From the IMG/VR virus record IMGVR_UViG_2563366924_000006, positions 1 through 28,035 of that record: a stretch of DNA of 28,035 nucleotides. The stretch is one strand, 5' to 3'. A model generated the notes under the pieces. The model searched no databases. It was not told the origin of the DNA and was given only the letters and a program-made list of their open reading frames with translations. Below, piece by piece: positions 446 to 26,199 of this stretch; within the stretch, counting starts at the first letter, position 1, and every line of letters starts with the position of its first letter. The stretch is from a virus (taxonomy: Duplodnaviria; Heunggongvirae; Uroviricota; Caudoviricetes). The translations under genes and the position numbers were made by a program.

Positions 446-1068
446 GATGCCCCCCCTCAAATTTTGAAAACTTCGCTATTGGCTGGATTTCACCCTGAAT
501 TGTTGGTTGTTTTGTATGTGTAAGTGTTGTGGGTTAGTTATGGTGATATCGGTGTGTGATGTACAAGTGGTGCACAGGGCTGACAGTGCAAGTCATTGCA
601 ATGGCGTAAAAGCTACCAACAAGACGCAACCCCGCACCAGATAAGGCTTTGCCAAACTCAGCCATGAACGATCGCCAATAAAATCCGTATGTCAGGAACT
701 CACGAAAACCACCTAACTCATTGTTATTATTTGTGTTGATTTTCATCCTCGAAATTTGGCCTGCCCGCTCAACTGAAATCCACTGAAATTCATTACATTC
801 TGTGCAATTGCCATTTATCTCGGAATCCCCAGCACTGGCGCGGCCTGCGGGGAGCAATTGCACAAATCCCCAACTGAAAAAACTTTATGACGCAAAGAGC
901 GCAGGCGGGTGCGGTGTAGCGCGGTTTCCGTGATGCGATTCGTTCCGTGGGTGGCTGCGGCTGCGTTTCTGCGGGCCGCTGTGGTGACGATCCTTTCTTG
1001 CCCATGCGTTGACGTGATGGCGCTTTTGCGTGGCCTGTGGTGCGTTCTGGGGGCTGTATTTGAGGTAC

Positions 1069-1092
1069 AAAAAAGCCCGCGCGCGGCGGGCT
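1069..1092 (-). terminator. Rho-independent terminator of the late tail operon
   Basis: GC-rich inverted repeat AGCCCGC / GCGGGCT (about 1074-1080 and 1086-1092) with a 5-nt loop, followed on the minus-strand transcript by a U-run (plus-strand A-run 1069-1073). Lies about 20 nt downstream of the stop of the last tail gene (1112). Confidence 0.6.
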
Positions 1093-1111: not shown

Positions 1112-2809
1112 TCAGGCAATTAAGCCTTTGTATTTATTCTTTGTGGCTGTTGCAGCCGTGGCCGCTGTCGTGAAGTCGGCGGCATTCGTCGGTGCGCCAG
1201 TGTTCTGATGCGTATGCGCAGCACAGAACGTGGCTACCTGCTGCATCAGGTCAATAGTTTCCAGCATCATCTGCAAGGTGTTCACTGATTCACTGCCTAT
1301 ATGAACCGTTGGCCCCATCACCTGCTGCCCGCCGGCGGCAACACTCTTACGCAATCCCGCTATCTTCTCAGTCAGCGCCGCGCATTCTGTAGTGATGTTG
1401 CCGTTGACTTTAGTTGACTGATTGCCACCGACTTCTGTCGTGGCGTCCTGCGCCACATGCGCGACGTAGTTTGCCTGGGTTCCGATGGCGTAATCACCGG
1501 TGCTGGCCTGTTGAATGGCACCGGCCATGAGCCTGGCTGGCCCCATCACTTTGGTTGTATCACCGGCGTGGATAGTCGTATCACGCTGCGTGATTGTGCG
1601 GCTTTCCGTGTCGGCCTTAACCTCACGGTGCATGGATGATTCCGCAATCGTCTGGTCAGTGGTGCGCTGCATATGCCCTTCAACGGTGACGCGCGTTGCC
1701 ACGCCTTCACGTTGCTGCTGCAGCTGCTCGCCGGGCTTCACATTCGGCAGGCTGGTACCGTCCGGTAACGTCTGGCGAATAAAGGGCTTATCCGGGCGAC
1801 CATCCATAAATGCCACTTCAACCAGTGTCCCGACCGGCGGGAACTGGAACATGCCGCTGTCATGGCCAGCCATTGGCACCGGCAGCTGGACCGCTTTATA
1901 AACCGGTGTATCTCTTACCGGGTTGCCGTCTGCGTCCTGCAGCTGCAGATCCACGGCATAGCGTGGCCGAAACTCGTTAGCAATGTTGCCACTGCTCACC
2001 GGCTCAGAATGCGCAATCACCCTCGCAACCCGGGGAACATGCAGCCCGCCGGCAATCTCCGGACACACGGCCTCAAGCTGGCGGCGTATCAGGGGCTTAG
2101 TTAACGGATTGCCGGCGGCATCAAGCGGCGTCCATGTCAGCATCATGTCATCGTTCATCAGCCCGACTTTCGTTACCCGCTGACCATTCACCATCGCACC
2201 CGGTCGCAGTGTTGGCACCATCGGGATTGTCATCGTATCGCCGGCTGCTGATGCCTGGCTGAACTCATGCGGAATATCGACCGGCTTATTTGCCAGTAAG
2301 CTGTGCGCATAGCTGCCGGTGAACATGTCGCCATCAGGCAGCTGATACCAGACATAATCAGGAATGCTGAAGGATTTCCCCAGAATGGCCAGCAGCTGCC
2401 AGCCAGTGCCGGCATGGGTGAAATGGGCAATTGGTTTGTCGGTGTAGTCGGCGTTAGCGGGAAGCGTAAACGCCAAACCAGTATGGCTTCCCAGCCATTC
2501 AGCAACGATGCGTAAAGTAGGATGCTGGAACGAGCAGGGAATTGGCTTATCAAGTTTACCCGCCAGCTCCCGCACAAACAGTTTCGCGCTGCCGTTCTCT
2601 GCCGGCTGCGACCGCTCAACATACCCGGTAAACCAGCGATACATCATATCCGGGTATCCAATATCAAGGCGCACCAGTTTGCCGGTGTAATCATCACTGG
2701 TCACGGCGGTAATAAAACCCCGACCGCCTGATGACATTTCCAGTACCAGATTGACATCAGACAGGGGAATTTCGTCACCAGAAAGATAAAGACGTTTAAT
2801 CGGGCGCAT
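1112..2809 (-). CDS. Baseplate central spike protein, gpV/gp5-like, possibly a hub-spike fusion (565 aa)
   Basis: Motif FPPVGTLVEVAFMDGRPDKPFI resembles the gpV/VgrG OB-fold signature; C-terminal HTHQNTGAPT resembles the gpV spike-tip motif. Last gene of the tail operon, stop overlaps the start region of the upstream gene. N-terminal half not confidently assigned. Confidence 0.5.
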   Translation of the reverse strand: MRPIKRLYLSGDEIPLSDVNLVLEMSSGGRGFITAVTSDDYTGKLVRLDIGYPDMMYRWFTGYVERSQPAENGSAKLFVRELAGKLDKPIPCSFQHPTLRIVAEWLGSHTGLAFTLPANADYTDKPIAHFTHAGTGWQLLAILGKSFSIPDYVWYQLPDGDMFTGSYAHSLLANKPVDIPHEFSQASAAGDTMTIPMVPTLRPGAMVNGQRVTKVGLMNDDMMLTWTPLDAAGNPLTKPLIRRQLEAVCPEIAGGLHVPRVARVIAHSEPVSSGNIANEFRPRYAVDLQLQDADGNPVRDTPVYKAVQLPVPMAGHDSGMFQFPPVGTLVEVAFMDGRPDKPFIRQTLPDGTSLPNVKPGEQLQQQREGVATRVTVEGHMQRTTDQTIAESSMHREVKADTESRTITQRDTTIHAGDTTKVMGPARLMAGAIQQASTGDYAIGTQANYVAHVAQDATTEVGGNQSTKVNGNITTECAALTEKIAGLRKSVAAGGQQVMGPTVHIGSESVNTLQMMLETIDLMQQVATFCAAHTHQNTGAPTNAADFTTAATAATATKNKYKGLIA

Positions 2810-3324
2810 TAATCCACCACCTTACCAAGCGCATTATTGACGGGGTTCAATACCTTGCTTTCAAACCACGTCAGCTTCTGATCGCTTTCTTTCGCGGCGC
2901 TGCTGCTTGCGTCACCGGTGCCAGCTGATTGTTTTGCCGCTGCAGTACCATTTCGGGAATCGTTTCTTGCCTGGCGCTTTTCCGGAACGCTGTGTTTTTC
3001 ACGCAGCGTAAACTGGACACCCCAAGCCATTTTCCCATCCTGTTCCTGCGCCTCCAGCTTGCCCGCAAAATTGACCTGGCGAATGCCTACCGTGTTTGCT
3101 GTCAGGTTGGCCACACGGTAAAGTGCCAGCGCTCCACCGGCTGTCGTTGCGCTGGCCAGTGCAAAAAGACGCTTCAGCGTCTTTTCTTCAGAGAAGGGGA
3201 TCACCCCGCTTACCTGTAGCTCTTTGGCTTTAATACCCTGCTCTGCGCGGGTCGTGCTCGATGTCTGTCCTGACTGGTCTTTATCCTGATACTGCATCCC
3301 CAGCGTGACGCGCAGATTTTTCAT
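2809..3324 (-). CDS. Hypothetical tail-operon protein (about 171 aa from ATG at 3324)
   Basis: ORF track extends to 3366 through a TTG codon; the first ATG is at 3324 (MKNLRVTLGMQYQ...). Backbone-like GC. Low-complexity Ser/Ala/Gly-rich C-terminal region. No family recognised. Confidence 0.45.
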   Translation of the reverse strand: MKNLRVTLGMQYQDKDQSGQTSSTTRAEQGIKAKELQVSGVIPFSEEKTLKRLFALASATTAGGALALYRVANLTANTVGIRQVNFAGKLEAQEQDGKMAWGVQFTLREKHSVPEKRQARNDSRNGTAAAKQSAGTGDASSSAAKESDQKLTWFESKVLNPVNNALGKVVD

Positions 3325-3358
3325 GATGATGGCCTCGCCATCAAGAGCCAGAATGATG

Positions 3359-4060
3359 TTAGCCAATCATTGCCTCCAGTGCGCTCAAATCACTTCCTGT
3401 GAAAAGAATGGCTGCAGTATGTACCGCATCCGGATGAGGTAGATTTTTTACCAGCTCCACCGCTGTTGTCAGCGCCGGCCCCTTCATATTGAAAAACCAC
3501 GCTTTCGCCGTTTTCCCCTGCAATTCAGTCATTGCGCTTGCGATGTCTGCCAGTGCTGCGGTGCGCTCCTGAAGAAAACCCGCCAGCCCCGTGGTTATCG
3601 AACTCACACTGGCAGCTGCGGCCGCTTCAAGTTTTGCCGCCTCAATACGCGCAGCGTTCAATGCCTGCCGTGTCGTTTCTGTTGCGACGTTAATTGGGGC
3701 AGGTAATGCCGAAAGCACATCCGGCAGCTGCATTTTCACCTGTTCCAGTTCCCCAAAAGACTGCGCCAGCCGGCGCACCTGTTTCAACTCCGGCATGGGC
3801 AGGACTGAGGCAACGGAATCAAGGGATGAAAGTAAATCGCTGTGCGTGTTTTCGCATAGCATCATGATGATGTTGTGCGAGCCGGCCCCCTTCTCCAGCA
3901 GGCGCTTGCCCAGATAAGAGATGGCATTTAGCGGGCTGAGATAGCCCCCCGATTGGGTATGTTGGCCCAGTTCAGGCACCCATGGGTGAGCAGGGATAAC
4001 ACTGCAGGATAAAGAGGTTAATTGCGCCGGTATGCGCAAGGTGGCCTGTGTCCATGCCAT
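3359..4060 (-). CDS. Hypothetical tail-operon protein (about 233 aa from ATG at 4060)
   Basis: ORF track start at 4063 is GTG; the ATG at 4060 overlaps the TGA stop of the upstream fibre assembly gene (TGATG), suggesting translational coupling. Ala-rich predicted helical segment. No family recognised. Confidence 0.5.
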   Translation of the reverse strand: MAWTQATLRIPAQLTSLSCSVIPAHPWVPELGQHTQSGGYLSPLNAISYLGKRLLEKGAGSHNIIMMLCENTHSDLLSSLDSVASVLPMPELKQVRRLAQSFGELEQVKMQLPDVLSALPAPINVATETTRQALNAARIEAAKLEAAAAASVSSITTGLAGFLQERTAALADIASAMTELQGKTAKAWFFNMKGPALTTAVELVKNLPHPDAVHTAAILFTGSDLSALEAMIG

Positions 4061-4587
4061 CACGGGCGCTCCGGCCAGATGATTTCAGGTGCGGTACTAA
4101 TATCAAGACGGCGCAGAGCAGTACGATAAATACGCCATGCGGCGAGTTCTGCCAATTCTTCAGAAGTTATATCGCCATCATCCTGCGCTTCAGCCAGCGA
4201 GTTAATACGCGCACTGGCTAATGCCATTTCACTGTCGCGCCGCTGTGTCGCTACGGCTAGAGCATCAACAGGCACGGGAATGATTTTTCCCTGGCTAAAC
4301 AACCACTCACCCGATTCACCATTAAAAGCCTCCGGGACATCGCTCATATTGATTTCAGCGACGGAGAGATTAACTGGCCTGAGCATGGTGGCATCTGATG
4401 ATGCGGCGATAATACGACCACTATGATCATAGGTAAATTTCAACGTGTCCTCTGCAAATTGTGCACGCCGGTGATACCAGTCGATCCCCTGGTCATCTTC
4501 ACAAAATTCAATATTGAAAGATGCTTTTAAATCCTCCTGAACCGGCGTCAGGTCTGTACTAATCTTGAAGTTTTGAAAATTTTTCAT
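4060..4587 (-). CDS. G: Tail fibre assembly protein (P2 gpG-like chaperone)
   Basis: 175 aa, immediately downstream of the tail fibre gene; C-terminal region (ELAELAAWRIYRTALRRLD...) resembles the tail-fibre-assembly domain. Confidence 0.75.
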   Translation of the reverse strand: MKNFQNFKISTDLTPVQEDLKASFNIEFCEDDQGIDWYHRRAQFAEDTLKFTYDHSGRIIAASSDATMLRPVNLSVAEINMSDVPEAFNGESGEWLFSQGKIIPVPVDALAVATQRRDSEMALASARINSLAEAQDDGDITSEELAELAAWRIYRTALRRLDISTAPEIIWPERP

Positions 4588-4588
4588 T

Positions 4589-6781
4589 TTACTGCCCTAC
4601 GTTCATCCATGAACCGTTGATATTAATCTGGAGCGGGCGGCGTTGAATAATATCCACAATATCGTCAGGTGTAGTGGGAGAGTTATTTACTACGCCTGTA
4701 ATGACATATCCCAACTGATCGTTATATCCCAGCGCACGATAAATTACTGCGTTCTCTACAGCACCAAATCGTAATCCCTGCATAAATCGACCATTCGCCC
4801 AGTTATAAATATCATTGCGTAAGTCTATGTTTGCCCATGCTATCGTTGCATAGGGGCTTAAATCCTGCTGCGGTTGCGGGTTCCTGGGGGAATATACCCG
4901 CGAGCCACTTTCATAAACCACGCTGGCATTGAAAGTTCCGGCAGTGGATAAAGCGCCCTGGGGTGTACTCCATGAGAAGATTTCACGCCCTCCGGTATTG
5001 TCTTCCTGCAGGCGAATACTGGCACCATCCATTACCAGCAAAATTGTTTTGCCAGTATCAGATTCATTTAAAGCGATAGTCGGTACTGGCCCGGTAATAT
5101 CCATTGTACCTATGGCAGAAAGTCGCCCGGAGGTGCCGAGTGTATTTCCATCCCAGGAGAATGCTGTTTTACCATCACCAGTATTGTCTTCCTGCAGTCT
5201 GATCGCCGTGCCATCAGCAACCAGATAGAATTTCTTCCCGGAATCCGTTTCACTAAACACAATCGTTGGTGAACCTCCCTCCAGAGTGACTGGATAACTT
5301 GCAGAATTATTTTTAAACGTAACTGGCCCGGTAACATCCCCTCCAGCAGCGGAAAGCGCCCCAATGTTAGCCGGGGACAGCGTAATATCACGCGAGCCGT
5401 CAAAGGCAACGGTGTTGATTTTTCGTGCTGTTTCAAGTTTTTTGGCTGCTACCGCCGTTCCATCTGATGGCAGCGCCCCGACATCATCGGCAGTGGGTTT
5501 ATTGTCCGTGGTATAAAACGTCGTCCAGTTATTCCATGTATCACTGTCGCCGTTTTTTGTCCTGAGTTTTACCAGCCCCTGCTGCATATAGCTGGCGGCT
5601 AGTTGAACGTTGTAACGCCCTCCCAACCCTGAGAAATCCATAACTGAACTCTCAAACCCGGGTGAATGGGTGGCTGATGCATAAACAAAACTGACTGAGT
5701 TTTCCGGTAAATTGTTCGCATCGGTTGCAAATGAACCTGCCACACCCGATGCAACAGCCGAGCGAACAGCGAGAGCATTTCCATTAATCACAATCCGGTC
5801 AGGAGTAGTATCTTCTCTGGAAGTCTGGACATTTGCTGTCGCACCACTGCCTAACTGCAGACTCTTTCTGCTTTCTGCCGGGTCACTGAGATCACTTAAA
5901 TTTTTATCTTTGCGCAAAAAATCGTTATTTGCCTGCTGTTCCCCCTTGCTGCCTTTGGGGCGTAAGTCCGTCACGGAACCATCAGCATTGATTTGTGCGA
6001 CAGCAAAAACATAATGATTTACGTCATTTTTCACGTAATCAGCCAGCGTATCAGCCAGGGTAATCGTTGTATTAACCTGCCAGACACTGGTAAGAGTGCC
6101 GGTAAAACTGGTATCGACCCAGACTTTTACCGGTTTAGTGGCCACCGTGAGCGCCTGCTCTGCTGCCAGTACGGCACGCAACCCACCGACATAACCTGTA
6201 CCTGCAGTGACACTGTAATTGTTCCCGGATCGCTTAACCAAAAAGCCATCCCCGATAAATGCACCGGTGCCATAAACATCGATATTTTCAACCCGGTGGC
6301 GCTCATCCATCCCCGCCAGACGAGCAGTGAAATCAATCTGCCAGGTGCCTGCAGGCGTGGTGATTTGAGTTTCTTTTTTTGCCCCGTCGTACTCCATCAG
6401 AAATGAGCGCGTCAGCACGTTACCCTGAGTGCCAGCGTTGTTTTTTACCTTCTGCTGCAATGGGGCATGAACAATCATGGCCAGCGTGTTGCTGGTCTTA
6501 TCTCTCAGCCCTACCCAGTTAAATGAAAAATCGCCAACATCCGCGCCCAGCGTGATGGAATACACCACAGCGTTAGCATTCACCACACCCGTTTTTCCCA
6601 CGCTGGCGCGATGCACAATTTGCCCTGCAGTTGGCATTGCTTCAGCGGGATCGATAGGGTCTGTGATGTTCAGATTTGGAACATTGGCAAACACAAATTC
6701 ATCCAGTACAACGGGGGTATTGGCTGCAGCCTGTTGCGCTTTTAGCGCCTCAAAAGCTGTGGTGATAACGGTCTGTGACAT
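4589..6781 (-). CDS. H: Tail fibre protein (P2 gpH-like)
   Basis: 730 aa. N-terminus SQTVITTAFEALKAQQAAANTP and C-terminus NINGSWMNVGQ resemble the conserved N- and C-terminal ends of P2 gpH (recalled KYINGTWYNVAQV); Gly/Thr/Ser-rich repetitive central region. Confidence 0.85.
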   Translation of the reverse strand: MSQTVITTAFEALKAQQAAANTPVVLDEFVFANVPNLNITDPIDPAEAMPTAGQIVHRASVGKTGVVNANAVVYSITLGADVGDFSFNWVGLRDKTSNTLAMIVHAPLQQKVKNNAGTQGNVLTRSFLMEYDGAKKETQITTPAGTWQIDFTARLAGMDERHRVENIDVYGTGAFIGDGFLVKRSGNNYSVTAGTGYVGGLRAVLAAEQALTVATKPVKVWVDTSFTGTLTSVWQVNTTITLADTLADYVKNDVNHYVFAVAQINADGSVTDLRPKGSKGEQQANNDFLRKDKNLSDLSDPAESRKSLQLGSGATANVQTSREDTTPDRIVINGNALAVRSAVASGVAGSFATDANNLPENSVSFVYASATHSPGFESSVMDFSGLGGRYNVQLAASYMQQGLVKLRTKNGDSDTWNNWTTFYTTDNKPTADDVGALPSDGTAVAAKKLETARKINTVAFDGSRDITLSPANIGALSAAGGDVTGPVTFKNNSASYPVTLEGGSPTIVFSETDSGKKFYLVADGTAIRLQEDNTGDGKTAFSWDGNTLGTSGRLSAIGTMDITGPVPTIALNESDTGKTILLVMDGASIRLQEDNTGGREIFSWSTPQGALSTAGTFNASVVYESGSRVYSPRNPQPQQDLSPYATIAWANIDLRNDIYNWANGRFMQGLRFGAVENAVIYRALGYNDQLGYVITGVVNNSPTTPDDIVDIIQRRPLQININGSWMNVGQ

Positions 6782-6799: not shown

Positions 6800-7333
6800 T
6801 TATTTTGATGCGGTATAAACCACGTAATCACCGGTGAACCACCCGGCACGAACATCCAGCTCGTTAATGGTGATCACTTCATAATCATAGCGGCGGCAGG
6901 TTCGGCCATACTGGCGAATAATTTCCCGTAACAGTGCGCCGTTCGCCGCTATCTGGCCATCACTCACCCGGATGGTGATAACGTCCCAGTCCTTTCCCTG
7001 CTGCCGTTCCTGAAGCTCCACATAACCGATACCCAGCCGATGAAATATCGCAATAAATCCTTCGACGCTGCCGGCATCACGCGCATTTATCCATGCATAG
7101 GCCACACGCTTGCGAAACAAATCGAGAGGCTCGCCACTGAAACGGGTGATATCCCGCTCCCATGCCAGCAGATTCAGGAGGGCTTCCGGGCACGTCAGGG
7201 GGTCGAACTGTTTTGATGGCCATAACAACCAGTCATACAGCCATTGCCAGAACTTTTTGCAGGCGGTCAGCAACTTTGCCAGCTCGCCTTTGTCCATCCA
7301 GAACGGGAGTTTTAGCTTAGAAAAATCAGGCAT
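6800..7333 (-). CDS. I: Baseplate protein, P2 gpI-like
   Basis: 177 aa (P2 gpI is 176 aa); motif DPLTCPEALLNLLAWERD resembles recalled P2 gpI DPDTCPANLLPWLAWAFSVDRW; lies between J-like and H-like genes as in P2. Confidence 0.7.
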   Translation of the reverse strand: MPDFSKLKLPFWMDKGELAKLLTACKKFWQWLYDWLLWPSKQFDPLTCPEALLNLLAWERDITRFSGEPLDLFRKRVAYAWINARDAGSVEGFIAIFHRLGIGYVELQERQQGKDWDVITIRVSDGQIAANGALLREIIRQYGRTCRRYDYEVITINELDVRAGWFTGDYVVYTASK

Positions 7334-8507
7334 TCTTCAGCTCCACAGTAAGCGATGTCAGGCGCGGCACTTCCAGCTGGCTGGTGATGTCTTTGATGGA
7401 AAACTCCACCGAATCGACACCGCTCAGTAATTCGTGCAACTCCCTGCCAAGCTGTGAAAATGAGAAACGCGAATAAGGCCATGTCTTCACCACATCCCAG
7501 GCAGTATTTTCACGAAATGCGCAACGGATCAGGCTTTCGACATCACTTTTTAGCGCGGCTTGCGCTTCATCGCTTAGGTTGGAAAGATTGACCACGTACA
7601 CCGTTGCCGTCAGGTCACGGTGCGTTTCGGGCATGGCCATGCATTGCATATCATCGCCATGGCCGTGATGCCCCTGCGTATTGATAAAATCATTGACCGC
7701 ATCAATAAACGGCTGCGATGCCTGACCACTGTCGAGCAGCAGATATGCGTTTGCCGTACCGGGCCCGCGCGGTGCGTCATGCTTAAAGAAGATGCGATCC
7801 ACTGACAGCGCCACCACTTCCGCAATCATGCTGCGGTAAATCGCATCGGTATGATAATTACCTACCAGGTTGAACTGGTTGCGGCAACGTTCGCGCAGTT
7901 CATCATCTGATTCGTCATCGCCACCCGGTTGCGTCAACCAGTCATCCTCTGTCACCGCGCTGGCAATGCCAGGCACGGCCACCGGCAGAATACGGTAATA
8001 ACCGGGTGCCAGATTCCATGCAGCCCCCGCGCCATTGGCCTGTACTGGCACCAGAGCTGAAGCGACGTTTGCCGGGATGATTGTGTCAGCGGTGACGGCA
8101 AGCTGATAAATAACGCCATTAATCCGCTCAGTCTGCACAACCGTACCGGCTGGCACTGTTGCCACCTGGCCGGCGGTAATTTTGGTAAAACGCACTACCC
8201 CCTGCGCCGCGCTGGCGGGTTTCGGTGTGACATTCAGCCCCCACGCCAGCAGACGCAAAAGCGAGCCGGTCGCAGTGGCCACAAACATGTTGGCCATGAC
8301 AATGTTAATCAGCGCACTGATGATCCACATCACCGGCGTGGTGATTAGTGCCGTGACCAGACGCCAGAACGGAGACATGCGGGAGGTATTCGTCACAAAC
8401 CCCTCGGCTTTCACCAGGCGGTTAAATTCCGCTTTTACGGCTTCTTCAGTAACCGGCATTCCTGCATCCTGCAGGACTTTTTCAAAATCAGCCTTCGGCT
8501 TTTCCAT
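7326..8507 (-). CDS. Baseplate J-like protein (gpJ / gp6 family)
   Basis: Contains the Baseplate_J-type acidic motif GGDDESDDELRERCRNQ. Start placed at the ATG at 8507, which has a strong GAGGGAG ribosome-binding site; the ORF track extends it to 8549. Confidence 0.75.
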   Translation of the reverse strand: MEKPKADFEKVLQDAGMPVTEEAVKAEFNRLVKAEGFVTNTSRMSPFWRLVTALITTPVMWIISALINIVMANMFVATATGSLLRLLAWGLNVTPKPASAAQGVVRFTKITAGQVATVPAGTVVQTERINGVIYQLAVTADTIIPANVASALVPVQANGAGAAWNLAPGYYRILPVAVPGIASAVTEDDWLTQPGGDDESDDELRERCRNQFNLVGNYHTDAIYRSMIAEVVALSVDRIFFKHDAPRGPGTANAYLLLDSGQASQPFIDAVNDFINTQGHHGHGDDMQCMAMPETHRDLTATVYVVNLSNLSDEAQAALKSDVESLIRCAFRENTAWDVVKTWPYSRFSFSQLGRELHELLSGVDSVEFSIKDITSQLEVPRLTSLTVELKNA

Positions 8508-8829
8508 AATCCACTCCCTCGGATAGCGGCCCAAAATCATAGGTATCACCGGTGATAAGCAGCCTGGTCAGGCTTTCTTCTTCCACCTCTACCGTTCCCG
8601 GAACAATCCTTTCATCACCTTCTACCAGCAGGATTATCTGGGTGAAAATGTCGCTGCGCAGTGTCGGGCTGCGCTCTGCAATTAACGCTGTAGCCAGACC
8701 GCTTTCCATCACCGCATGTACCAGGTCCTGCCCAATGCTGTAGCGGTTATTGCAGGTCATTGGCTCATTGCCGGCATTCAGCACGATATCGCCGCCGGTG
8801 ATGAGCAAATCTATAAATAAATCACTCAT
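8488..8829 (-). CDS. Small baseplate protein, possibly gpW/gp25-like
   Basis: About 113 aa from the ATG at 8829, which overlaps the tape-measure stop (ATGA). Size and position before the J-like gene match gpW; sequence resemblance is weak. Confidence 0.4.
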   Translation of the reverse strand: MSDLFIDLLITGGDIVLNAGNEPMTCNNRYSIGQDLVHAVMESGLATALIAERSPTLRSDIFTQIILLVEGDERIVPGTVEVEEESLTRLLITGDTYDFGPLSEGVDYGKAEG

Positions 8830-25292: not shown

Positions 25293-25853
25293 CTATTTCA
25301 CACTGTTTTTTATGCCAAGGAACATCCAGATATAAGAAACAATTTTGATATTATGAAGCGCATGTGCCAGTGAGTTACGCTGAAAGTCATATTTAATAAT
25401 GCTATTCATATTCAGCCCAAGTTCTTCTGCTATTGTCACCATGGTAATGACACTCTGCTCATTAGCTTCAAGAAAACACTGACCGGCGAACCTGTCCAGG
25501 TAATGATGTATCACCTTGCTATGCATGGACGGACAACCAAACCAGGTCTTGACGTATTTGGCATCAGAATTTTCAATGATAAACCCGTACAGGTCACAGA
25601 TAGCCAGCTCAATATCCTGACAATCATCATCCAGTATCTGACTGCGAACCTCTGAAGGCTGACGTAACCACCACTGGATAGCGTGGGCACTTACCGTACC
25701 GCCATTACTCATACAGTCATCAAGGCTGATACGTCTGTAGAATTGCTTACCAACCTCCCCAGTTGTAGGGTCAAAGAAAACGGCGCTTAAACCCGTAATA
25801 GCTGCGGTGTGCTTTTCGTCCATCAGTTCTACATCAATCATTAAATGTTGCAT
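25293..25853 (-). CDS. 3'-5' exonuclease, T4 DexA-like (DEDD-type)
   Basis: From the ATG at 25853 (AAGGA ribosome-binding site): MQHLMIDVELMDEKHTAAITGLSAVFFDP... resembles the recalled T4 DexA N-terminus (DFETMG..EKAAVIDLSVIAFDP); second block HAIQWWLRQPSEVRSQI versus STIEWWKNQSPEARKNI. The ORF track N-terminal extension to 25973 is hydrophobic and lacks a ribosome-binding site. Confidence 0.65.
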   Translation of the reverse strand: MQHLMIDVELMDEKHTAAITGLSAVFFDPTTGEVGKQFYRRISLDDCMSNGGTVSAHAIQWWLRQPSEVRSQILDDDCQDIELAICDLYGFIIENSDAKYVKTWFGCPSMHSKVIHHYLDRFAGQCFLEANEQSVITMVTIAEELGLNMNSIIKYDFQRNSLAHALHNIKIVSYIWMFLGIKNSVK

Positions 25854-25866
25854 GTGGATATCCTTA

Positions 25867-26199
25867 TCAGGAAACGTGGCGAGAATTGGAGGAAGTATTA
25901 CGCTTACGCGCAACACTATTAGCAGCCAGAGATATAAGGCCGGGAACACTGCTTTCTTCAGGAACCTGACCACTGAACACCATTAATGTGATGGTGTGCA
26001 ATTCTTCATAGTCTGTTATGTCATTATTAAAATGCGCAGATGACGAAATACCTTCAAGGCATTTTGCCAATTTGATATTCAACTCCATCAACTGCAAAGC
26101 ATCGCTATGAATAGCTGACTGGTCAGTATTGATGTTTTCAATTTGATTATGATAATTCTGCAACAAACTACGAATTATCGTGGCGTATTTTGCTTTCAT
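25867..26199 (-). CDS. Hypothetical early protein (about 110 aa) in the AT-rich cargo block
   Basis: First gene after cox on the same strand; AT-rich; basic Ser-rich C-terminus; start uncertain (ATG at 26199 or GTG at 26232); no family recognised. Confidence 0.35.
   Translation of the reverse strand: MKAKYATIIRSLLQNYHNQIENINTDQSAIHSDALQLMELNIKLAKCLEGISSSAHFNNDITDYEELHTITLMVFSGQVPEESSVPGLISLAANSVARKRNTSSNSRHVS

Follow-up and report, generated by a model that had tools for sequence, protein, structure and literature searches.

The window analysed here, a 28,035-nucleotide (nt) stretch covering positions 1 to 28,035 of the IMG/VR record IMGVR_UViG_2563366924_000006, raises the question of what is encoded by the last gene of its late operon. 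The open reading frame (ORF) concerned, 1112..2809 on the minus strand, is intact, starts with ATG and specifies 565 amino acids (aa) followed by a stop codon. The initial annotation recognized a gpV/gp5-type central spike and pointed out, correctly, that the protein is over twice as large as P2 gpV (565 versus 211 aa). It left a choice for the N-terminal half, between a fused VgrG-like hub and a novel receptor-interaction or effector domain, and it regarded the place of the gene as unusual. Our analysis indicates that the protein is very probably the central hub-spike of an HP1-type (Peduoviridae) baseplate, with the equivalents of P2 gpD and gpV in one chain. A second Phage_GPD, Phage_base_V or PAAR gene is absent from the window genes, and this, together with the fold, the sequence, the synteny, the splitting of the gene in relatives and the literature, leads to the hub-spike assignment.

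The spike identity of the C-terminal half is apparent from sequence comparisons. The Pfam family Phage_base_V, which describes the OB domain, matches residues 308-344 with 24.2 bits, compared to a gathering cut-off of 23.8. The motif FPPVGTLVEVAFMDGRPDKPFI, quoted in the initial annotation, is indeed present at residues 323-344 (nt 1778-1843) and lies inside this match. Pfam also finds a weak match to the gp5 C-terminal helix. A family set of 70 non-redundant members was assembled, and its alignment was used for the profiles and for the AlphaFold2 model. In this set, Phage_base_V is matched by 59 members, Gp5_trimer_C by 32, the Gp5_C repeats by 10 and the GpV Apex motif by a single one. A search of the PDB with the single sequence gave only borderline hits (E 0.01-0.3), and it took the family profile to reach significance, with VgrS (9mlp, E 5e-5), VgrG1 (4mtk, E 4.5e-4) and the T4 gp5 beta-helix (E 5e-3). 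Each significant match of the profile lies in the C-terminal half. The profile match to VgrS, the Phage_base_V match and the fold matches described below thus bear out the spike claim.

For the N-terminal half, the predicted structure is informative. The AlphaFold2 model has a mean predicted local distance difference test (pLDDT) score of 84.8, and values above 90 for residues 1-230. Structure prediction and comparison, which the initial annotation had proposed, returned a VgrG-like fold with a matched OB fold. In the model, residues 1-237 (2099..2809; this and the following ranges are on the minus strand) form a compact hub of the gp27, Mu gp44 or P2 gpD type, a 'mini-hub'. Residues 238-257 (2039..2098) form a helical linker from the hub to the OB fold, with helices at 240-248 and 250-253. 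The OB fold of the gpV/gp5/VgrG type spans residues 258-350 (1760..2038) and is backed by Phage_base_V and by the comparison of the profile with the PDB, with NCBIfam VgrG models also matching 312-374, far below their cut-offs. Residues 351-505 (1295..1759) are modelled as extended strands, presumably the needle shaft. By computed comparison they resemble the beta-helix of gp5, VgrG and gpV, and each chain would probably contribute them to an intertwined beta-helix of the trimer. A tip module, residues 506-565 (1115..1294), completes the protein.

Foldseek searches of the PDB with this model aligned the whole chain with the VgrG protein 9jg9 of a type VI secretion system (T6SS; E 7e-20), and further with 8gra, 4mtk, 9mlp and 2p5z. 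Spikes of extracellular contractile injection systems (eCIS) were also matched over the whole chain, namely 7aef_q, 9qgm (Pvc8), 6rbk (Afp8) and 9gtr, with E values of 1e-15 to 1e-19. Partial matches were of two kinds. Mu gp44 (1wru), MuSo2 (3cdd) and the R2 pyocin hub (6u5h) matched the hub only, and P2 gpV, R2 pyocin and Mu gp45 (3qr8, 4s37, 9ki1_V) the spike only. Structural comparison gave a score of 22.8 over 450 residues for the spike of a Streptomyces contractile injection system (9gtr_q), and 20.5 over 279 residues for 2p5z, a VgrG hub plus OB fragment. Hubs of the Mu gp44 type (3cdd, 3d37, 1wru) scored 18-20 over 216-219 residues at 2.4 Å, the R2 pyocin hub 6u5h_C, the counterpart of P2 gpD, 16.0 over 214 residues, the minimal Pam3 hub gp19 10.6 over 175 residues, and P2 gpV (3qr8) 8.1 over 149 of 157 residues. 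The model thus points to a gp27/gp44/gpD hub fold for residues 1-237, in agreement with the first of the two options that had been considered for the N-terminal half.

Several points weigh against this assignment. The hub is recognized from a predicted structure, and neither the query nor any of the 70 members has a Pfam Phage_GPD match at E <= 0.1. In hhalign comparisons with the single P2 gpD and gpV sequences, the family profile gave no significant match; the probability against the single gpD sequence was 0.4%, but the templates had an effective number of sequences (Neff) of 1, so that this result is uninformative rather than negative. With about 237 aa, the domain does not reach the size of a full hub (~320-390 aa). 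It is ~100-150 residues shorter than gpD or gp44, and comparable to Pam3 gp19 (229 aa). Only ~216-219 of 325 gp44 residues align, about two thirds, and some hub functions may reside elsewhere, for example in the product of orf33. A monomer model cannot display the beta-helix, the trimer or iron binding. Searches of the PDB and the literature did not find a solved structure or a genetic test for the exact family. Residues 1-237 therefore work like a hub according to the model, yet are not a Phage_GPD member by either sequence or size.

Membership of the protein in its own family is clear-cut. It matches phrog_2258 ('baseplate protein') with E 1.1e-233, with residues 1-564 on profile positions 1-543/544, and its C-terminal 325 residues also match phrog_4011 (240-562). 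There are at least 1107 homologues and at least 595 related IMG/VR viral loci, and together with the PHROG match these numbers are far beyond chance. An assembly-derived protein and an IMG/VR contig are 95-98% identical (98% for the IMG/VR copy), and the closest named relatives in a large protein collection come from Citrobacter (84%, Citrobacter freundii protein P0004). Among isolated phages, Cronobacter ESSI-2 and related Escherichia phages are closest (62-63%), followed by Salmonella SI7 (58%) and Yersinia vB_YenM_324 (57%). More distant homologues are found in Aeromonas phiO18P, Haemophilus HP1 and HP2 (39%), Pasteurella F108 and Vibrio K139/Kappa (36%). RefSeq and PHROGs label the family 'baseplate protein'. 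The finding is real, and the protein belongs to a known family, of which it is an ordinary representative.

The gene comes last in a long late operon on the minus strand, after the fibre gene, the fibre chaperone gene and two small genes. Its ATG overlaps the stop codon of the orf34-like gene (TAATG), with an AAGGTGG run upstream, and the two genes are translationally coupled. About 20 nt past the hub-spike stop codon, the operon is closed by an intrinsic terminator at 1074-1092 (minus strand; read from 1092 to 1074, AGCCCGC-CGCGC-GCGGGCT and then TTTTTTG), with a 7-bp stem that contains 6 GC pairs. In K139, the annotated terminator T39 is located at the same place.

Some relatives encode the two halves of the protein separately. 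In Pseudoalteromonas phage ACA1 (gp48 and gp49), Pseudomonas phage phi3 and Vibrio phage 1.202.O (gp40 and gp41), the second gene begins at about residue 238 of the window protein, in the linker, with MVKQAIKRLIQRYFPEL... in ACA1 gp49, MEEAVTRIVERQFPEL... in phi3 and MDVNVIKRIIFRLFPEF... in 1.202.O gp41. The split point, at ~residue 237/238 in all three, confirms the modelled boundary between hub and linker. The ACA1 paper (2023) had already mapped gp48 by HHpred, at 10-15% identity, to the N-terminus of HP1 orf35 and to P2 gpD, labelled there 'cell puncturing device mounting domain', and gp49 to the C-terminus of HP1 orf35 and to gpV/3QR8 (PMC10612066, Table S1). Both proteins were detected in virions by mass spectrometry (PMC10612066). 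In our literature search on HP1 orf35, K139 orf39 and the HP1-type hub and spike, this was the only paper to come up. The gpD plus gpV assignment is therefore already published, and the structure prediction confirms it independently.

In ACA1, the hub gene gp48 and the spike gene gp49 overlap by 28 nt (14603-14630), with gp49 in the -1 frame. No slippery heptamer was seen by eye in the overlap, and it is therefore probable that the overlap reflects translational coupling and not programmed frameshifting. In Pseudomonas phage phi3 (KT887559), the hub-domain gene (MKLHQVLTINGQ...KWKKP*) is present at ~2480-3165 without GenBank annotation; the record annotates the spike half only, as a 'Gp5 domain-containing protein'.

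How common the two states are was estimated by searching 1.84 billion representative proteins with residues 1-238, the hub alone, which yielded 254 clusters at E <= 1e-3. Among the best 150 of these, 91 are stand-alone proteins (205-265 aa) versus 14 fused ones (470-612 aa). In a rough neighbour-joining tree of hub domains, the fused forms do not make up a single clade, but such a crude tree does not allow events to be counted. The fusion of hub to spike hence looks evolutionarily labile, with many relatives keeping two genes.

The existence of two-gene relatives raises the possibility that the fused chain is cleaved in the 238-257 linker during assembly, so that the mature hub and spike are separate proteins. 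Many relatives indeed make two proteins that are split at this very linker, and its pLDDT (68-81) is below that of the flanking domains. However, VgrG and Pvc8/Afp8, which have the same architecture, work uncleaved, and neither a protease site nor an autoproteolytic motif came to light. We consider cleavage improbable. It is less plausible still that the protein is a spike only, with a new receptor-binding or effector domain as its N-terminal half and with the hub supplied by another gene. This would fit with the observation that residues 1-237 are matched by no sequence family except their own PHROG. The proposal is largely refuted by the predicted hub fold, and the Pfam, NCBIfam and fold searches showed neither a lysozyme or effector domain of the T4 gp5 kind nor a toxin or receptor-binding module. 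The effector alternative of the initial annotation is not supported. The least credible explanation is that the gene is bacterial, from a T6SS (VgrG) or an eCIS (spike), and happens to lie beside the prophage. In its favour, VgrG and eCIS spikes give the best structural matches, and the UniRef name of one homologue is 'Actin cross-linking toxin VgrG1'. Against it, the NCBIfam models TIGR03361 and TIGR01646 score only 24.9 and 26.2 bits, with cut-offs of 186.35 and 121.8, and cover just the OB segment 312-374. The gene is translationally coupled within a phage late operon and conserved in isolated phages, T6SS or eCIS genes were not found in the window, and mass spectrometry detected the split homologues in virions (PMC10612066).

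The helix-HxH-helix tip is the sole mildly unusual feature of the hub-spike protein. In the model, the tip module consists of a helix (511-531), the His-x-His (HxH) motif H532-T-H534 (nt 1208-1216) and a second helix (543-560), with pLDDT values of 82-91. The second motif quoted in the initial annotation, HTHQNTGAPT, is present as well and covers residues 532-541. H532 and H534 are invariant in all 70 aligned sequences, and an HxH is found within the last 45 residues of 225 of the 226 full-length family members. The same tip layout is seen in HP1, phi3 and ACA1 gp49. Miller et al. (bioRxiv 10.1101/2023.02.25.529910) take a C-terminal HxH as the sign of an integral Apex, where an iron ion is enclosed by three such motifs, and report that spikes lacking HxH have a PAAR protein; in gpV, the Apex comprises residues 191-211, with the iron cage formed by H197/H199. 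By its HxH, the window protein belongs with the spikes that have an integral Apex in the sense of Miller et al. (2023).

The first helix (511-531) is strongly amphipathic across the family, with a helical hydrophobic moment of 1.61 compared to 0.53 +/- 0.27 in shuffled sequences, and none of 2000 shuffles reached the observed value. The second helix (taken as 543-561) is not significantly amphipathic, as 22% of the shuffles reached the observed value. In the trimer, the helices may come together as a coiled-coil tip. It is conceivable, if rather doubtful, that the tip is a structurally distinct spike apex, either a six-helix bundle or a coiled coil with an Fe(His)6 cage as its cap, which would replace the short Apex of P2 gpV (21 residues, 191-211). 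Given the properties of the second helix, the six-helix-bundle idea leans mainly on the first helix and on the confidence of AlphaFold2. If the idea was true, the tip might be blunter or behave differently, for instance by unfolding or inserting once it has penetrated.

In a minority of relatives, there is an alternative tip that contains Cys and His residues, of the form ...C-x3-C-P-F-x-G-K-P-H-V-D-x-S-T-T-V-(Y/F)-A-G-K, as in 1.202.O gp41 (3154-3849) and in the proteins P0357 and P0359. This end is found in split as well as fused proteins, which indicates that the tip is an exchangeable module. In Vibrio phage 1.202.O, a 65-aa ORF that follows the short spike was considered as a detached helix-HxH tip and rejected, as it has no similarity and no HxH.

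The location of the gene is what the HP1 lineage would lead one to expect. In a synteny sample of the best 80 of at least 595 related IMG/VR loci, orf33, orf34 and orf35 are colinear and adjacent in 75, and a median of 1.6 kb of contig is left past the orf35 gene, so that it lies near the prophage end. HP1 (orf33-34-35), K139 (orf37-38-39) and ACA1 (gp46-49) share this operon end. The initial annotation was therefore right to place the gene last, after the fibre genes, and mistaken in calling the position non-canonical. Its expectation that a spike gene should be found next to the tape measure gene does not hold for P2 gpV itself, since V heads the V-W-J-I-H-G operon, away from the tape measure gene. 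The P2 genes that follow the tape measure gene are U and D. In P2, T-U-D are the final late genes and lie beside attP, and gpD is the product of the last late structural gene. The terminal position is thus canonical for the HP1 group and equals that of P2 gpD.

The neighbouring genes fit with this comparison. The upstream gene (2809-3366, minus strand) belongs to the HP1_ORF34 family. The model of its 185-aa product (pLDDT 69 overall, 84-91 in the core) has a tail-tube fold, with baseplate tube, tube-initiator and 'ripcord' proteins as the best matches, and the protein is, as judged from this model, a tube-initiator or 'ripcord' protein analogous to P2 gpU. In the ACA1 paper, orf34 was tentatively equated with gpU, by HHpred at 10-15% identity (PMC10612066). 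Taken together with the P2 gene order, the gpU-like fold suggests that the orf34-orf35 pair is equivalent to U and a D to which V has been fused. The hub-spike gene thus ends the late operon by virtue of occupying the gpU-gpD position of the HP1 lineage. The orf33-like gene (3359-4063, minus strand) opens the conserved terminal orf33-34-35 module. Its 234-aa product matches phrog_1677 (unknown function, E 6e-53), and otherwise gives weak matches to helical proteins. The homologous ACA1 gp46 was found in virions by mass spectrometry (PMC10612066). No equivalent of the P2 LysM protein gpX was identified for the HP1-type baseplate. The orf33-like protein may fill the hub-to-wedge 'glue' role that gpX has in P2-type baseplates.

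From known families, the likely role of the hub-spike can be sketched. Three copies would assemble on the tail axis. Their hub ring would dock onto the tube-initiator ring, made of the orf34-like protein, and onto the end of the tape measure, and it would nucleate the gpW/gpJ/gpI-like wedges. The three C-terminal halves would intertwine to a rigid needle, with the tip closed by an iron ion that is held by six histidines from the three HxH motifs. With such an iron-closed tip of its own, the needle should not need a separate PAAR cap. Sheath contraction would then force the needle across the outer membrane in the manner of a drill bit, and the hub-spike would leave the end of the tube, so that the tape measure and the DNA could exit.

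The window as a whole represents an HP1-type (Peduoviridae) prophage that is nearly complete and includes genes for capsid, terminase, sheath, tube, lysis and integrase. In a megablast search against isolated phages, the only match was one of 7%, in the primase gene; hence, there is no near-identical isolate. The minus strand carries the capsid, terminase small subunit, head-completion and tail-completion genes (19041-14658), and the genes for sheath (13125-14648), tube (12667-13125), holin and endolysin (12002-12663), tail chaperone (11254-11577), tape measure (8826-11066), gpW-like protein (8488-8847), gpJ (7326-8549), gpI (6800-7333), tail fibre (4589-6781) and fibre chaperone (4060-4587). 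These are followed by the orf33-like and orf34-like genes and by the hub-spike gene, the homologue of HP1 orf35 and K139 orf39, at 1112-2809, which is identified by its ORF, phrog_2258 and the fold matches. On the plus strand, terminase and portal genes are found, and then a primase-type replication gene. The integrase gene runs off the right end of the window.

Some other features of the window deserve mention. A 41-aa ORF (11063-11188, minus strand) is located between the genes for the tail assembly chaperone and the tape measure, at the site where P2-type phages make the frameshifted chaperone (gpE/E+E'). In the fibre and fibre-chaperone region (window 4000-6000), the G+C content is 48-49%, versus 53-55% in the flanking tail genes. 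The C-terminal part of the fibre matches many unrelated fibre PHROGs, as is usual for a mosaic host-range cassette. A 226-aa protein (25293-25973, minus strand) contains an Rv2179c-like 3'-5' exoribonuclease domain (E 5e-50). Its gene lies in the AT-rich early region (40% G+C), between the primase and integrase genes, and is possibly accessory or defence-related cargo.

Downstream of the late-operon terminator, in AT-rich DNA (42% G+C), positions 150-445 of the window contain at least 12 copies, in both orientations, of the ~11-nt motif AAACCGTCACA / TGTGA(C/T)GGTTT. The region ~137-528 is kept at 70-78% identity in related prophage contigs, and is therefore phage and not host DNA. The array could consist of arm-type sites for the integrase (Int) or accessory att sites, of cos/terminase sites, or of operators. 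Between the array and the late terminator, there is a GTG-initiated ORF of 109 codons (534-863, minus strand), which may be a moron or no gene at all. The stretch ~770-932 beside it is conserved in many related loci.

The assignment leaves the current understanding of contractile tails unchanged. It accounts for the seemingly missing hub, spike and tube-initiator of the HP1-type baseplate, and its main consequence is for annotation. Prophage copies labelled 'hypothetical' or 'baseplate protein', of which there are thousands in enterobacteria, Pasteurellaceae, Aeromonas and Vibrio, can be named hub-spike, and their upstream neighbours gpU-type tube initiators. New in this work are the census of fused and split forms and the description of the tip. 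As fused and two-gene states coexist among relatives, the latter divided at a single linker, the family offers a natural system for studying what is gained by fusion, and at what cost.

With respect to known systems, a more distant comparison is with cyanophage Pam3, which has separate genes for hub (gp19, 229 aa) and spike (gp20, 7YFZ) and a different host group. The T6SS VgrG proteins (9jg9, 4mtk, 9mlp, 2p5z) and the eCIS spikes Pvc8/Afp8 (9qgm, 6rbk, 9gtr_q) have the same succession of hub, OB fold and beta-helix in a single chain. In contrast to the window protein, which has its own HxH tip and is the product of a phage gene, they have a blunt beta-helix with a separate PAAR cap and are encoded in T6SS or eCIS loci. 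P2 gpD (387 aa) and gpV (211 aa, 3QR8), and likewise R2 pyocin PA0628 and PA0616, are separate-gene counterparts. In P2, the two genes belong to two operons, the hub is ~150 residues longer, and sequence identity is only ~10-16%. P2 gpV ends with ...HTHKHPGDSGGTTGSPL, and its 21-residue Apex (191-211) has no sequence counterpart of the amphipathic helix, whereas the window protein has a 21-residue amphipathic helix before the HxH and 31 residues after it. The split relatives, ACA1 gp48 and gp49, and also those of C5a, Pseudomonas phi3 and Vibrio 1.202.O (gp40 and gp41), have the same modules in the same order and position, and differ in that two overlapping genes, divided at the linker, take the place of the fused gene. 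HP1 orf35 (UniProt P51739), K139 orf39 and the 'baseplate protein' of ESSI-2 and SI7 (phrog_2258) are full-length orthologues with 36-63% identity. They share the domain order, the terminal position after orf33 and orf34, and the HxH tip. There is no substantive difference to this group, and the window protein is best described as a divergent enterobacterial member of it.

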